DNA of 31,114 nucleotides, taken from the NCBI GenBank assembly GCA_003345545.1, contig PRDH01000053.1:1-31114 (forward strand), given 5' to 3'. This stretch comes from Candidatus Thorarchaeota archaeon (GTDB taxonomy: Archaea; Asgardarchaeota; Thorarchaeia; Thorarchaeales; Thorarchaeaceae). The first letter of the stretch is position 1; each line of letters begins with the position of its first letter. The translations under genes were made by a program, and so were the position numbers. The notes beneath the pieces were generated by a model. The model saw only the letters and a list, made by a program, of their open reading frames with translations. It was not told where the DNA came from and did no database searches. Positions 13,178-19,338 of the stretch are shown piece by piece.

Positions 13178-14380
13178 TTACCAGAGTTGGTACTGCCTCT
13201 TGACGAAACCTTCCCAGACATGTGGCAGCTTTGCAATCACTTCCTCAGTGATTGACTCAACAGATTTCGTTACTTTCTTAAGATTGCAGTCACCGAAAAT
13301 CTCCACATTGACTGCCTGCGGCTCAGTGATTGGGGCGCCAATCTTGCTCACGATGTAGCAGTAGACTTGCGCTAGATCGGGGTGTTCTTTGTATACTCTC
13401 TCCGTTATTTCCCTCGCTGTTACATTGTATGTCTTGCCAACATGTGACACAGGATTCTTCCCCGCAGCAGCCTCTAGGGTCATCGGCCTATATGGCGTAA
13501 TGAGACCATTCGCCCGATTACCTCGGCCTACCTGTCCATCATCACCATGTTCTGCTGAGGTACCAGTGACTGTGAGATAGAATAGATTGTCTTCCGGACT
13601 GTCAGCAGTATTGACACTGACTTCTACATCCATGTCGGTGATTTTGACAGCGAGGTCTGAAACAAGGTCACGTATGCCCTGCATGACGTTGGCATACTCG
13701 TTCCTGTCTTTGGTTTCACTGGATATTATCGCCGCTGCAACCTGGACATGTACCTTGTCTTCAATTCGCGTGCTCATGACCTTGATGTCCTCACCGATTT
13801 GAGGCCATTCTCTCTTCACCTTCTCGCTGTTTAGTAGCTGTTCTGTTTCCAGAGTGATCAACTCGGTTGGTGAGAATGGAGCAAAGCCAACACCAAAGCT
13901 TGTGTCGTTTGCTCGCGGCACTCCAGTTTCGAGATCGAAGTTGCCGACCAGGTCTGTAGAGCCAGCACGTATCTTGTAGTCAATGATGACATCCGAGTTC
14001 ACGTCCAGGTGCGGAAGGTCTTTGCTCAGCCACTCTCTGGTGTGCTCTACAGCGAATTTCCCTACGGGCACCTGTCGTGTGTAGTCTTTGCCCACGACAT
14101 CAACAGCTCGCCCGCTTAACAAGATGTATATTGGCTCAATAACGTCTCCTCCTCCGAACTTGGTGATAGATTGCCCTCCGACGAGTAGAACCTTGTCCAC
14201 GTTGTGATGCTGTACCTGACCAAATGTTTCCATGTAGTACTCACTGAGGCGTACTGAAAGCTCTTCGGCGGCTTTGTCGCAGAGTGTGTCAGGGTGTCCT
14301 TTTCCCTTACGTTCTACAATCTCGACCGGGAGCTTGTCAACACTAGGTCCGTATCCTGCTGTGACTCTCAAATTGCGCAT
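13178..14380 (-). CDS. mat: Archaeal-type S-adenosylmethionine synthetase
   Basis: VEIVERKGKGHPDTLCD, HHNVDK, ANDTSFGVG, GEDIKVM, GDDGQVGRGNR and AGKNPVSHVGK. Start at ATG 14380. Confidence 0.97.
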   Translation of the reverse strand: MRNLRVTAGYGPSVDKLPVEIVERKGKGHPDTLCDKAAEELSVRLSEYYMETFGQVQHHNVDKVLLVGGQSITKFGGGDVIEPIYILLSGRAVDVVGKDYTRQVPVGKFAVEHTREWLSKDLPHLDVNSDVIIDYKIRAGSTDLVGNFDLETGVPRANDTSFGVGFAPFSPTELITLETEQLLNSEKVKREWPQIGEDIKVMSTRIEDKVHVQVAAAIISSETKDRNEYANVMQGIRDLVSDLAVKITDMDVEVSVNTADSPEDNLFYLTVTGTSAEHGDDGQVGRGNRANGLITPYRPMTLEAAAGKNPVSHVGKTYNVTAREITERVYKEHPDLAQVYCYIVSKIGAPITEPQAVNVEIFGDCNLKKVTKSVESITEEVIAKLPHVWEGFVKRQYQLW

Positions 14381-14420
14381 GATAATCAACTCACTGTTCC
14401 GTGTGCCGCAGAACGAAAAG

Positions 14421-14432
14421 CATATAAAAATT
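14421..14432 (-). promoter_or_regulatory. Putative TATA box for mat
   Basis: Minus-strand AATTTTTATATG about 40 nt upstream of the mat ATG. Confidence 0.5.
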
Positions 14433-14495
14433 TTCATTCGTAATTCTCATAGGTAATACTGGATGTAATGTCAATTACTGACAGGAATATGAAGG

Positions 14496-15038
14496 ATGAT
14501 ACCAACTGCCGGCGAGCTCTCGAAGATGAGACGTGAATTGGGAATGACACAAGCGGATCTTGCAGAAGAAGTAGGAGTATCGCAATCATATATCGCTCGT
14601 CTTGAACGCGGTTCACTCGATCCAAAACTATCTATCGTCAGCAGGATTGTTGATGTACTTGTCAGCCGCCAAAGCAAGACCTGTGCAGATATCATGACGC
14701 CCGACCCCAAAACAGTTGATGCACGAGACCAAGCATCTCTGGCAGTGGGTCTTATGCAAGAATACAACTTCTCGCAGGTGCCAGTTCTCAGAGGCACTCA
14801 GCTTGTGGGACTTGTGACCGAACGTGACATCATACGGAATCTTCAGCACAACATGAACGAACTCTCAGTTCAGGCAGTAATGAGTCCAGAGAGCGTACCG
14901 ATTATTGACGAAAGTACCCCTGTGGACGTTATCACCCCGCTCTTTCAGACCTATCAAGCAATATTGATTCATAATCAGGGACGTATCCGCGGCATCATCA
15001 CTCGTTCTGACCTTCTTAAGCTCACACATAGGCCCTAG
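14496..15038 (+). CDS. Transcriptional regulator, XRE-type HTH + CBS pair
   Basis: LSKMRRELGMTQADLAEEVGVSQSYIARLERG (HTH). CBS motifs FSQVPV, VGLVTERD and GIITRSD. Confidence 0.95.
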   Translation: MIPTAGELSKMRRELGMTQADLAEEVGVSQSYIARLERGSLDPKLSIVSRIVDVLVSRQSKTCADIMTPDPKTVDARDQASLAVGLMQEYNFSQVPVLRGTQLVGLVTERDIIRNLQHNMNELSVQAVMSPESVPIIDESTPVDVITPLFQTYQAILIHNQGRIRGIITRSDLLKLTHRP

Positions 15039-15139
15039 TCAAGGCGTTGAAAAGTTTGCGAGTATCCTCTCATCATTTGTGCCCCCGCAGAATATCTTAT
15101 ATGCGATAGAGTGAAAATTCACTCGGAGTAGATAGCTAA

Positions 15140-15796
15140 GTGCCGAATTACCTGGACTCACTTGATGACCTCCGTGATGGACTTGATACATTCATCGAGA
15201 AATGGTCAAACATTCAGAGGAAATCTGTGAAGGCGATTCAGGCGGTCACGAACACAATCATGCAGATTGAGCACTTGGATGGACCGCTGGGCAAGCTTGA
15301 GGGCTTCCAAAACCTTAGAGAGAACTGCAAAGGAATTCTGCTGGTAACTCTATATGATAATCTGGTCCCCTCTTTTGAGACCTCGATAAGAGAGTTCACT
15401 AAACTCATGCACATGTTTGAGAACTTGAGGCACTCCTCATCTACGATTCAGACACTCACGGAGTCAATGCGCGGCGACATTGAGGACTCACCTGAACTTG
15501 ATGACCTTGTTGGATTCCTCGATCTCATAATGATCAGTATTCGGGATATCCTCAACATGTACGAGCAAGAGTTTCTTGTTAAATTGACCATCTTCAGAGA
15601 CTTCGAGGAAGGTGCTATCGACATCGGCATAGTGAGCAACTATCTCACAATCTGGCTTGTAGAGCCGAATATCGAACCCAGTGCTCGTGACAAGCTCCTC
15701 AAAGATCTCGATGAGCACGTTGAGTTATTGCGGGATGTCTTCATGGGGAAGACTGGAATCAGATTGCCGGATGCCTACAAGAAAGCCGAACTCTGA
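15140..15796 (+). CDS. CINP/C1orf109-like alpha-helical protein (candidate eukaryotic signature protein)
   Basis: C-terminal LNMYEQEFLVKLTI...YLTIWLVEPNIE matches my recollection of CINP LEMYRKELLLKRTV...YLSMWLHQPYVE. N-terminal FIEKW...N motif and similar length. Confidence 0.7.
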   Translation: MPNYLDSLDDLRDGLDTFIEKWSNIQRKSVKAIQAVTNTIMQIEHLDGPLGKLEGFQNLRENCKGILLVTLYDNLVPSFETSIREFTKLMHMFENLRHSSSTIQTLTESMRGDIEDSPELDDLVGFLDLIMISIRDILNMYEQEFLVKLTIFRDFEEGAIDIGIVSNYLTIWLVEPNIEPSARDKLLKDLDEHVELLRDVFMGKTGIRLPDAYKKAEL

Positions 15797-15982: not shown

Positions 15983-17131
15983 TTGAGTGATGAGAACGAC
16001 GAAATGGTAGTCACTCCCTATGAAGTCCGCGGAAAGCTCGACTACGACCGCCTCATTCAAATGTTCGGTACCCAGCGTATAGACAAGAAACTGAAAGAGA
16101 AGCTCTTCAAGGTAGCTGGCGAACGGCACTTTATGCTTGAGCGCGACTTATTCTTCTCACATAGGGACCTAGACTGGATTCTGGAAGAACATGTCAAAGG
16201 GAATCCCTTCACAATCTACACTGGAAGAGGGCCCAGTGGCGATACTCATATCGGTCATCTTGTTCCTTGGATATTCACCAAATGGCTGCAGGACAGAGTG
16301 AAGACACGACTCTACTTTCAGATGACAAACGACGAGAAGTACTTCTTCAACAGTAATCTTAGCCTTGATGATGTTAAACGGTACACACACGAGAACACTC
16401 TCGATCTCTTGGCGCTCGGATTCCAACCTGAGAACACGTATATCATTCAGGACATCGAACACATTGACATGTTGTATGAGATTGCTATTGAGGTCGCTCG
16501 AAAAGTGACCTTCTCGACTGTTAAGGCGACCTTCGGTTTTGATAATAGCACGAACATCGGATCCCTCTGGCATCCTGCGATACAGGCTGTTCCGGCCTTC
16601 CTGCACTCATGGATCTATGGCAAGAACACGCCCTGCCTCATTCCGTGTGCGATTGACCAAGATCCATTTTGGAGAGTGACTAGAGATATCGCCGAGAAGC
16701 TCGGATACTACAAGCCCGCGACCATCCAATGCATGTTCGTTCCAGGTCTCAAAGAGGGAGGCAAGATGTCTGCCTCCGACGAGATGTCCGTTATCTACAC
16801 GACTGACACGCCAAAAATGGCAAAGAGGAAGGTGATGGCTGCCTTCACAGGTGGGCGTGCAACGGTCGAAGAACAGCGCAGACTCGGAGCTAATCCTGAT
16901 ATCTGCAGCGTATTCAAGTGGTACAAGTTCATCTTCGTACCTGACGACGCGAAGCTTGCAGAAATCGAACGCACCTGCAAATCTGGTGAATTGCTCTGTG
17001 GTCCATGCAAGCAGTTTCTGGCTCCGTTGATGGTAGACTTTCTTGAGAAGCATCAAGCTGCACGAGAAGAGGTCAAAGACAGAGTAGATGAGTTCTCAGC
17101 TGCTAGACTTCGTGATGAGATTCGTAGATAG
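15983..17131 (+). CDS. trpS: Tryptophanyl-tRNA synthetase (archaeal/eukaryotic type)
   Basis: VVTPYEV, YTGRGPS, HIGH, IDQDPFWR, KMSAS and AFTGG. Confidence 0.97.
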   Translation: MSDENDEMVVTPYEVRGKLDYDRLIQMFGTQRIDKKLKEKLFKVAGERHFMLERDLFFSHRDLDWILEEHVKGNPFTIYTGRGPSGDTHIGHLVPWIFTKWLQDRVKTRLYFQMTNDEKYFFNSNLSLDDVKRYTHENTLDLLALGFQPENTYIIQDIEHIDMLYEIAIEVARKVTFSTVKATFGFDNSTNIGSLWHPAIQAVPAFLHSWIYGKNTPCLIPCAIDQDPFWRVTRDIAEKLGYYKPATIQCMFVPGLKEGGKMSASDEMSVIYTTDTPKMAKRKVMAAFTGGRATVEEQRRLGANPDICSVFKWYKFIFVPDDAKLAEIERTCKSGELLCGPCKQFLAPLMVDFLEKHQAAREEVKDRVDEFSAARLRDEIRR

Positions 17132-17287
17132 AATCTGCTGGATGGGCAGGAGAGTTGTTGATACCCCTACCCTGAATGCTTGTGAACTGTCAGAACACAG
17201 CAAATCAGTCTCGAGGGTTAACCACCATAATGCTAAATAGAATTCACCTCCATTGCTCTTCCATACACAGACTCGGAGAGTTTGATT

Positions 17288-18328
17288 ATGGGTTCTGAAG
17301 CACAAACAGCGGACATGTTCAAGTGTCCTGTCTGTAACGGCAACGTAAAAACGGGACCTGATGATGTTGTTATTACTTGTACCTATTGTGGAAATACGAG
17401 CACAATAGAGGGAAAGGCTATTGGCGACCACTTGATGGAGCCTGCCAAAGGCGCTGATGAGCGAATACAGGGCTTCCAAGGCTTTCTTGACAAGAATAAG
17501 GGCATGAACAAGTCCTTGGTCAAGAACGTACAAGTCGTCGAGAACCGATTGATCTATGTACCTGTATGGACTGCGAAGGTCAAAGCTGACTCCTACTACA
17601 AGGGTTACAAGACCGTTCAAGTTCCCGTTCAGAAGACTAGGACTGTTAGAGATTCTAACGGCCATACTAGAACTGAGACTTATACTGACTACGAAACAGG
17701 TTACGTACCTGTTCAGTCTGAACTTCACACAGATACTAATGAGCCAATGCTTGCAAGAAAAGGCGCTCGTTTCTACGGGCTCGAGGAGTTCTTGGGAACC
17801 ATTAAGATTGAGAATACAGTTCCCTATAACTTTGAGAAAATCAAGGATCTAGATCCCACGATTCTCAATGCAGAGATAGGTCAGGAAGAATTCGAGAAGG
17901 CGATTCATGGTCGGGTCGCTGATAATCATCGTTCTCAGGCAGGAAGTGGCCTGGCAGAGCTGTTTGATTGTCGCACTACCACTAGTGTAAGAGGAACTAC
18001 ATACCTGCAAGCTCCGTTCACCATGGTTCGCTACAAGTTCCAGGGCGATCTCTACAAAGCTGCTATCGATGGCAATTCCGGCAGGGTGCTTATGGGAGAA
18101 ATACCAATTGCACGAGGTCAACGGGCCATGTGGACAGTTCTTGGTCTGATTGGAATCATCTTTGCAGGTATAGGATCGCAGCTCCTGTATCAAAACATCG
18201 TTGTTCCTGCTGAGCCTGTCATGGATATGTGGACTGCTATCGGAGCTGTGCTGGCAATCCTCGGCATAGTAATGACTGCGCTTGGGTTCAGGGTGTTGAT
18301 TATGACCCAACGCACGAAGAAGGGGTGA
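17288..18328 (+). CDS. YdjG-like zinc-ribbon membrane protein
   Basis: N-terminal CPVC..CTYCG, YVPVW, PFTMVRYKFQGDLYKAAIDGNSGRVLMGEIP, and two C-terminal TMs. Confidence 0.8.
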   Translation: MGSEAQTADMFKCPVCNGNVKTGPDDVVITCTYCGNTSTIEGKAIGDHLMEPAKGADERIQGFQGFLDKNKGMNKSLVKNVQVVENRLIYVPVWTAKVKADSYYKGYKTVQVPVQKTRTVRDSNGHTRTETYTDYETGYVPVQSELHTDTNEPMLARKGARFYGLEEFLGTIKIENTVPYNFEKIKDLDPTILNAEIGQEEFEKAIHGRVADNHRSQAGSGLAELFDCRTTTSVRGTTYLQAPFTMVRYKFQGDLYKAAIDGNSGRVLMGEIPIARGQRAMWTVLGLIGIIFAGIGSQLLYQNIVVPAEPVMDMWTAIGAVLAILGIVMTALGFRVLIMTQRTKKG

Positions 18329-18333
18329 TCAAA

Positions 18334-19338
18334 ATGGCGAAGTGTGCTTTTTGCGATGCAAGTTTTGAAACTGGTCCTGGCGATGTGCTCCTCGTGTGCC
18401 CGTTTTGCGGAACAGCGCAGACAACCGAGGGAACCAAGTTCAAAGACCACTATATGATACGAGTCCATTTCAACCAGAACGATGCTCAAACAACCCTCTT
18501 GGATTGGGTTTCAAAGCAGCTCGGTGCTCCAGCCGATCTGCCCACAACCGCGAAGTTCGTAGACAACCAGCAGGTGTGGTATCCTTTCTGGATAAGCAGA
18601 GTAGATGCTCGCACGGACTATCAAGGTATGGGCCGTGATGCAACATTTCACGATGAATGGATGCAGCGACCAGGTGCCTATAAACGGATCAACTTCTTCT
18701 GGAAGCCAGAGTCCGGTCAGTTCACTCGAAGGCATGAGATCAATATTGCTGGAGTGAAAGACATCGATCCTGATGTTCGTGGCCATCCGATTCCGACTCG
18801 AGCAAAGGAGTACTTCAGCCATGCTCACGCGGAGGAATACGCTGGTAAAGTTCTTCACAGTAATATGACTGAAGACGATGCAAAGGCCGCAGCACGTCAG
18901 GAAGCAATGGACCGTCAGACGAGGTTGGTTCTACAAGAAGTAAGCAAGATCGAGTCTAGGAAGGATGATATTAATGTTGGCGAGACCTTCTTGATCCATG
19001 TTCCTGTTTGGGAATTGGCCTACAGGTATGGCAACAAGAAATACAAAGCCTCAGTGTCTGCCGCCACAGGGTATGTGATTGAAAGTCAATATCCACGGTC
19101 GATGAGTTACAGGGCAGGCGGCATCGGAGTCGGTCTGCTTATGCTCATAATAGGTGCGGGACTCATTGCGGTTGCATTGGGTCAGCTCCAAGTGTTATTA
19201 GATTTGCTTGAGCAGTTGCTTGGATTCGAACCGCAACTTCAAGGCGGCGGTCTAGTATCCGGCGGGATGTTGGCGGTCATCGGCCTTGTGTTGATGTACA
19301 AGGGAGCCTCCAGAAAACAGGCAAAAGAGAGTGTGTAG
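18334..19338 (+). CDS. YdjG-like zinc-ribbon membrane protein, tandem paralogue
   Basis: CAFC..CPFCG, WYPFW, VPVWELAYRYGNKKYKASVSAATG and C-terminal TMs. ATG 18334 with a GGGGTGA SD overlapping the upstream stop. Confidence 0.8.
   Translation: MAKCAFCDASFETGPGDVLLVCPFCGTAQTTEGTKFKDHYMIRVHFNQNDAQTTLLDWVSKQLGAPADLPTTAKFVDNQQVWYPFWISRVDARTDYQGMGRDATFHDEWMQRPGAYKRINFFWKPESGQFTRRHEINIAGVKDIDPDVRGHPIPTRAKEYFSHAHAEEYAGKVLHSNMTEDDAKAAARQEAMDRQTRLVLQEVSKIESRKDDINVGETFLIHVPVWELAYRYGNKKYKASVSAATGYVIESQYPRSMSYRAGGIGVGLLMLIIGAGLIAVALGQLQVLLDLLEQLLGFEPQLQGGGLVSGGMLAVIGLVLMYKGASRKQAKESV

Follow-up and report, generated by a model that had tools for sequence, protein, structure and literature searches.

A human AAA+ unfoldase that acts in ribosome maturation and replisome proteostasis, and is mutated in neurodevelopmental disease, contains CINP and C1orf109 as essential subunits. 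Their membership of this complex, 55LCC (SPATA5-SPATA5L1-CINP-C1orf109), has been established biochemically (PMC11055677, PMC12019325, PMC9004343). Each of the two proteins consists of five helices and is a monomer when alone. Together they form a T-shaped, asymmetric 1:1 heterodimer through the loop between helices 1 and 2 of C1orf109, and the N-domains of SPATA5 dock at the T-junction, where R84 contacts E147 of CINP and D199 of C1orf109 (PMC11055677, PMC12019325). In 55LCC, the helix 1-2 loop of C1orf109 forms the plug by which CINP is bound, and CINP anchors the assembly to pre-60S particles via the GTPBP4 tail (residues 452-474) and ES27A, RLP24 being extracted (PMC12019325). CINP was first described as a replication and checkpoint factor, and it itself binds ribosomal components (PMC12962969, PMC12019325). 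Yeast Drg1 works without such an adaptor, and a 2025 preprint called CINP and C1orf109 eumetazoan-specific (bioRxiv 10.1101/2025.11.07.687187).

Homologues of CINP in Asgard archaea, named CINPL, were described by Köstlbacher et al. (Nat Microbiol 2026; PMC12962969). They are full-length and, among prokaryotes, limited to five major Asgard clades; Hodarchaeales are the group with which eukaryotic CINP branches. Outside the scope of that study were C1orf109, gene context, copy number, expression and a partner ATPase, which are examined here for a gene from Candidatus Thorarchaeota archaeon (contig PRDH01000053.1; the 31,114 nucleotides analyzed are called the window below). The initial annotation of this gene had stated that CINP-like proteins have been reported in Asgard archaea and are functionally uncharacterized, in agreement with the published study (PMC12962969). 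Our main conclusion, which we hold at a probability of about 90%, is that the open reading frame is a real, constrained, single-copy Thorarchaeal member of the CINPL family, a homologue of CINP within the PF15011 superfamily.

The CINPL gene occupies positions 15140..15796 on the + strand, stop codon included, and encodes a predicted five-helix bundle of 218 aa from a GTG start. The boundaries given in the initial annotation were exact, and the all-helical character and the quoted motifs were found as it described them. In the orthologue alignment, the start position is identical, with M in the orthologues. A promoter-like TTATAT (15097-15102, + strand) is situated about 40 nt 5' of the GTG, and a GGAG (15125-15128, + strand) is found 11 nt before it. 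Both elements were read from the sequence, and their presence suggests that the CINPL gene is a separate transcription unit. Six RNA-library contigs of 151 nt each, obtained in three metatranscriptome studies (wetlands and sediments), show 100% identity to the open reading frame between 15172 and 15762. Such contigs cover the interior of the open reading frame and parts of the adjacent TrpRS gene; the CBS-HTH gene and the intergenic DNA are without such contigs, and gaps and transcript ends in the contigs carry no meaning. The matches are consistent with transcription of the CINPL gene, DNA carry-over in such libraries being possible.

The gene is under strong constraint. Comparison with a same-genus orthologue gave a dN/dS of 0.014 (dN 0.004, dS 0.28). 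Together with the 144 conserved homologues described below, this places the gene well outside what chance would give. Within its own family, CINPL identity is 65-71%, as compared with 68-74% for the adjacent TrpRS and 47-57% for the CBS-HTH regulator, so that CINPL is about as conserved as the former and more conserved than the latter.

Conserved residues are spread over the length of the protein. In helix 1, alignments, HMMER and hhalign locate the motif IEKW (residues 19-22; 15194..15205, + strand), of which W22 is nearly invariant in the Asgard homologues; its counterpart in vertebrate CINP is W37 (LILKW). Invariant columns mark the helix 1-helix 2 loop and the start of helix 2, HLDGPLGKLEGFQNLRE (residues 45-61; 15272..15322, + strand), which ends with LEGFQNLRE (residues 53-61); according to the orthologue alignment, H45, G48, G51 and L53 are invariant in Thorarchaeota. 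Further downstream, MYEQEFLVKLTI (residues 140-151; 15557..15592, + strand) is common to the CINP segment MYRKELLLKRTV, and YLTIWLVEPNIE at the helix 4-5 junction (residues 168-179; 15641..15676, + strand) is common to the CINP segment YLSMWLHQPYVE. M140 in the first of these segments and W172, E175 and P176 in the second are nearly invariant across the whole family. The near-invariant Asgard residues W22, M140, W172, E175 and P176 align with the invariant W37, M155, Y156, W186 and P190 of vertebrate CINPs, and the complete CINP/CINPL motif set (W in helix 1; MYxxE..K; YLxxW..(E/Q)P) is present in the Thor protein.

An AlphaFold2 model built with 22 orthologues (pLDDT 80.5, pTM 0.75) is all-helical, with predicted helices at residues 2-47, 57-111, 118-157, 162-174 and 180-201. 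In its size of about 200 aa and its bundle of five helices, the prediction agrees with the CINP/CINPL family. In a Foldseek comparison with the PDB, the best matches were CINP and C1orf109 chains only (TM 0.5-0.68 over about 200 columns), and the class after them followed at TM ~0.3. The C1orf109/AIRIM structures compared were 9gwj_A, 8rhn_A/B and 9lgo_G/H. The fold resembles CINP and C1orf109 to the same degree, one that a designed helical bundle also reaches. The modelled likeness to C1orf109 is present, but it is not specific. The structure comparison suggested in the initial annotation singled out CINP and C1orf109 chains as best matches, but did not set them apart from a designed bundle.

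Homology to CINP is well supported by sequence profiles. With the window protein alone, phmmer found human CINP chains in the PDB with an E-value of 5e-3 over the C-terminal 110 residues, and a Thor-only profile reached CINP at E=7.6e-4. With a broad Asgard profile (A2), the match to human CINP became full-length and reached E=5e-15 (positions 5-182 of 208 versus 4-181 of 196). An Asgard profile from which Thorarchaeota and every sequence of possibly eukaryotic origin had been left out (A3) also matched CINP, at E=3.4e-9. When A3 was aligned with 12 vertebrate CINPs using hhalign, the probability was 95.6% (E=1.3e-8, 151 columns), and the aligned span began at the W motif of helix 1 and ran as far as the (E/Q)PY motif; the Thor-only alignment gave 72% (E=3.4e-5) against vertebrate CINPs. 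HMMER aligned MYRKELLLKRTV...YLSMWLHQPYVE of the PDB CINP chains to the C-terminal region of the Thor protein, and LILKWETL of CINP was aligned to its N-terminal W motif. The human CINP strings that the initial annotation had cited were correct, and the homology that it proposed is borne out by the A2 and hhalign scores and by the collinear motifs. The match also goes beyond that of a generic helical bundle, as it is significant and full-length, and was obtained from the eukaryote-free profile too.

The relationship with C1orf109 is more distant. The Pfam family PF15011 ('Ribosome biogenesis protein C1orf109-like'; 'CA109-like') has a gathering threshold of 27 bits, and the window protein scores 19.7 bits (E=8e-4), below the cut-off. 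At E<=0.01, PF15011 matches 20 of the 22 Thor members (best 1.2e-6), and for other Asgard members the scores rise above the cut-off, up to 54.5 bits (E=1.6e-14). Full-length vertebrate CINPs are matched weakly in 9 of 12 cases (best E 3.7e-6); neither half of human CINP matched PF15011 in a Pfam scan, and tetrapod CINPs are without a precomputed Pfam domain. Human C1orf109 itself was seen by A2 at E=0.045-0.11, among coiled-coil noise, and was not found by A3 at E<=1. A sub-profile for the middle region (A5) found neither human CINP nor C1orf109 at E<=10, and the resemblance that the initial annotation had noted between LEGFQNLRE and a segment of C1orf109 is without statistical support. Its suggestion that the protein combines features of both paralogues holds in that Asgard members match both PF15011 and CINP, but not at the level of human C1orf109, which gave either scores within the noise or no match.

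In the ESM Atlas, used as a lead only, the window protein had as feature neighbours PF15011 clusters of eukaryotes, namely oomycetes, plants and arthropods (scores 0.93-0.94); one neighbour cluster, likewise a lead only, was named 'C1orf109 homolog'. Judging from the profile comparisons, we assign CINP, the PF15011 family and the Asgard proteins to one superfamily, in which the Asgard proteins appear clearly closest to CINP. The link from the Thor protein to C1orf109 is an indirect one.

A word-indexed search identified 144 homologues at 63-100% identity, all annotated as 'hypothetical protein'; the named members among them are Thorarchaeota. More remote members were found by an HMM search of 1.84 billion representative proteins with the Thor profile, which returned 28 clusters, all named ones being Asgard. 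In this search, other Asgard members were reached at 1e-8 to 1e-29, and the distant full-length members carried Asgardarchaeia, Hodarchaeota and Promethearchaeota labels. Within the phylum, CINPL is carried by 129 of 400 genomes, patchily and family by family. It is present as a single copy in 79 of 85 genomes of the family of the source genome, and in 21/22, 17/19, 5/5 and 2/2 genomes of four other Asgard families; it was not found in other families of the scan (0/135 and 0/31 genomes). The handful of positive families agrees with the five major Asgard clades reported previously (PMC12962969). In the source genome (2.69 Mb, 93% complete), no second CINPL paralogue was found at E<=1.

Among prokaryotes, the family appears to be confined to certain Asgard lineages, as judged from these searches. 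The Asgard homologues contradict the animal-specific origin given in the preprint (bioRxiv 10.1101/2025.11.07.687187). Taken together with the PF15011 clusters of the Atlas, which are dominated by oomycetes and plants, they indicate a distribution that is probably far wider and older than animals. The searches also brought up an orphan CINP-like protein of 233 aa (P0145, on ENA contigs of 18.7 and 401 kb), whose LWLHQPYLD motif is of the eukaryotic type and whose N-terminal extension is rich in Ser, Pro and Lys. Close relatives of P0145 were not found in the 90% cluster index, where the search returned P0145 alone.

We then consider the genomic context. Directly upstream of CINPL, on the same strand, is a gene for a regulator with HTH_3 and CBS domains (14496..15038, + strand), which was identified by Pfam and synteny. 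It holds this position in every Thorarchaeia locus that was examined; in other Asgard families it does not. Downstream of CINPL, Pfam and synteny place a class I W/Y-type aminoacyl-tRNA synthetase, TrpRS-like (15983..17131, + strand). Only Thorarchaeia keep CINPL and TrpRS linked, and in some cases other genes lie between the two. An archaeal SAM synthetase (MAT; 13178-14437, - strand) is divergent from the regulator gene, and the whole block of MAT, CBS-HTH, CINPL and TrpRS is conserved within Thorarchaeia only. The six non-Thor families have unrelated neighbours and no common neighbour cluster: an ArcTGT-like protein, HypF with RtcA, phosphoglucomutases, MetRS with TrmB, or PolB. Genes for translation or RNA metabolism recur among these neighbours, but differ between lineages and are not conserved (TrpRS in Thorarchaeia; MetRS, an ArcTGT-like PUA protein and RtcA in families f3, f11 and f30, respectively). 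In none of seven Asgard families was an AAA+ gene found near CINPL. With a block that holds in Thorarchaeia only and unrelated neighbours elsewhere, synteny was dropped as a functional clue.

Several features of these neighbourhoods deserve mention in their own right. The pair of SAM synthetase and divergent HTH_3/CBS regulator is kept across all Thorarchaeia. As adenosyl compounds are common ligands of CBS domains, the regulator may sense SAM or adenosine and act on the SAM synthetase gene. Downstream of TrpRS, two paralogous open reading frames (17282-18328 and 18229-19338, + strand; 348 and 369 aa) encode proteins with an N-terminal CxxC...CxxC zinc ribbon and hydrophobic C-terminal segments, neither with a Pfam match. 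The pair is kept at this place in several Thorarchaeal genera (cluster c6). The longest-ORF calls share about 100 nt, which makes a later start of the second frame probable. Near the left end of the window, a 666-aa protein with an Eco57I/MmeI-type N6-adenine methylase domain (337-2337, - strand) is a candidate type IIG/IIL restriction-modification enzyme. In family f14 (L045-L047), the CINP-like gene is placed between three paralogous phosphoglucomutase/phosphomannomutase genes, a block kept within the family. In family f11 (L041-L044), it is flanked by conserved proteins of about 714 and 470-505 aa without a Pfam match, which are adjoined by the ArcTGT-like DUF5591/PUA protein.

The source genome has exactly two double-ring Cdc48 paralogues with a CDC48_N domain, which are 55% identical. 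According to PDB bit scores, both are nearest to VAT (about 820) and p97 (665 and 708), and neither is distinctly Afg2/SPATA5-like (614 and 590 for SPATA5). Typing of the paralogues by such scores was dropped, paralogue A leaning towards Afg2 only marginally. Co-distribution was examined with the N-domain of paralogue A, which was detected in 383 of the 400 genomes. It is also present in the CINPL-negative families (130/135 and 28/31 genomes), and in one CINPL-positive family a single Cdc48 passes the threshold applied; there is therefore no co-distribution signal. A complex prediction with two CINPL copies and the Cdc48-A N-domain scored 0.00 ('no answer') and counts neither way.

Contacts known from 55LCC are poorly represented. 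E147 of CINP, the contact of SPATA5 R84, is not kept and aligns with the hydrophobic I132 of the Thor protein. Likewise, the GTPBP4-contacting residues K22, L122 and Y125 of CINP are not conserved; of the GTPBP4 contacts, only the basic residue before the W is loosely kept. With respect to pathway components, the source genome has one eL24 gene, and no Rlp24-type eL24 paralogue was found in it. A second L24e-like match was rejected as an Rlp24 analogue, because it belongs to a wHTH regulator that carries a TRASH-type zinc ribbon at its C-terminus. This 292-aa protein (G000:C76; L075, 1480-2358, - strand) has a winged-helix-like N-terminus, matches Ribosomal_L24e weakly (21 bits) and is not a paralogue of a ribosomal protein. 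The Nog1-type GTPase open reading frame, of 357 aa, is too short for the tail that CINP binds in GTPBP4 (452-474), and a long-tailed Nog1 was not found in the genome.

Together, the four tests of context, co-distribution, interface and pathway components lend no support to an adaptor role. The homo-oligomeric adaptor for a Cdc48/Afg2-type ATPase envisaged in the initial annotation has drawn no signal from gene context, from co-distribution or from interface conservation. A Cdc48 partnership of other geometry is compatible with the outcome of all four.

How far the CINPL reading itself might be mistaken can be judged from the data above. If the open reading frame were spurious or decaying, without a functional gene, the GTG start and the uniform database annotation as 'hypothetical protein' would be accounted for, but neither the dN/dS of 0.014 nor the conservation as a single-copy gene across 129 genomes. 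The start position common to the orthologues, the matching RNA-library contigs and the confident fold prediction also speak against this explanation, which is refuted by the conservation data. The resemblance to CINP and C1orf109 might be convergent, reflecting a generic long helical bundle with chance motif matches. We consider this very improbable in view of the full-length, collinear profile match (5e-15; 95.6% with hhalign), its persistence at 3.4e-9 with a eukaryote-free profile, the location of the common motifs on near-invariant columns of both the Asgard and the vertebrate alignments, and the agreement with an independent published analysis (PMC12962969).

For a genuine CINP-family protein, it is conceivable, though at somewhat less than even odds, that the function in archaea is Cdc48-independent, CINPL being a stand-alone scaffold in ribosome, translation or RNA-related processes or in replication, with recruitment to an AFG2-type ATPase as a later eukaryotic innovation. 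Such a scaffold would fit the missing AAA+ linkage and co-distribution and the lack of conservation at the known SPATA5 contact residue. It would also fit the frequent translation and RNA metabolism genes among the neighbours, though these are not conserved between lineages and may be there by chance in housekeeping regions. The history of CINP as a replication and checkpoint factor and its own ribosomal binding point in the same direction (PMC12962969, PMC12019325), as does the fact that yeast Drg1 needs no such adaptor (bioRxiv 10.1101/2025.11.07.687187). However, the contacts that CINP makes with the GTPBP4 tail and ES27A are without an archaeal counterpart (PMC12019325), and for both eukaryotic relatives the only biochemically established role is that of constitutive subunits of an AAA+ complex. 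It is this biochemistry, in combination with the two Cdc48-type ATPases of the genome, that suggests an adaptor role. A helical adaptor on Cdc48-type N-domains, acting alone or as a homo-oligomer, is the role that we favour by this analogy, at the same somewhat less than even odds as the scaffold.

If CINPL is such an adaptor, its docking site would be the N-domains of a double-ring AAA+ unfoldase of the Cdc48 type, and once docked it might shape or gate the substrate entrance. It would then be expected to act as a homo-oligomer or in single copies, and not as a heterodimer of the CINP-C1orf109 type, because only one paralogue is present. Homo-oligomerization is not implied, since human CINP and C1orf109 are monomeric when alone and their T-shaped dimer is asymmetric. 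Candidate interfaces would be the invariant helix 1-2 loop, by analogy with the loop of C1orf109, and the conserved C-terminal head (MYExE, YLxxW..EP). Eukaryote-specific docking, through the Nog1/GTPBP4 tail, ES27A or the Rlp24 placeholder, would not be expected to apply.

A single ancestor of both 55LCC adaptors, as the initial annotation had proposed, is compatible with the data and unproven. In its strongest form, CINPL would represent the state before the CINP/C1orf109 duplication, already capping an archaeal Cdc48-type unfoldase as a homo-oligomer, which we regard as unlikely. If it were true, the adaptor-capped architecture of AFG2/55LCC would predate eukaryotes, instead of being a metazoan addition.

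The homology of Asgard proteins to CINP is already published (PMC12962969), and the Thor protein is an ordinary member of the family. A strongly constrained, single-copy Asgard homologue shows the adaptor lineage to be far older than animals, as already noted for CINP (PMC12962969). Added here are the Pfam bridge from CINP to C1orf109-like proteins, the single-copy status across the phylum, the missing operon or co-distribution link to Cdc48, and the lack of conservation of the SPATA5, GTPBP4 and Rlp24 contacts. Asgard CINPL may also offer a simpler, one-subunit system for asking what a helical cap does on a Cdc48-type motor.

In comparison with 55LCC, the source genome also has a homologue of an adaptor subunit and double-ring ATPases with CDC48_N domains. 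It differs from 55LCC in having one adaptor paralogue, not the two that make a heterodimer, and ATPase paralogues that appear VAT/p97-like rather than AFG2A/AFG2B-like, judging by PDB bit scores. The Rlp24 placeholder, the Nog1 C-terminal tail and the rRNA expansion segment are lacking, and the genomic adaptor-ATPase link was not found in the Asgard loci. In comparison with CINP, identity is only 16-18%, the Thor protein has a short, invariant helix 1-2 loop where that of CINP is long and Ser/Glu-rich, and the source genome is without a C1orf109-type partner paralogue (E<=1). The closest correspondence is with the published CINPL (PMC12962969), which is the same family of helical proteins of about 200-240 aa, found among prokaryotes in some Asgard clades only. 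Nothing essential differs, and the Thor protein is one more orthologue.
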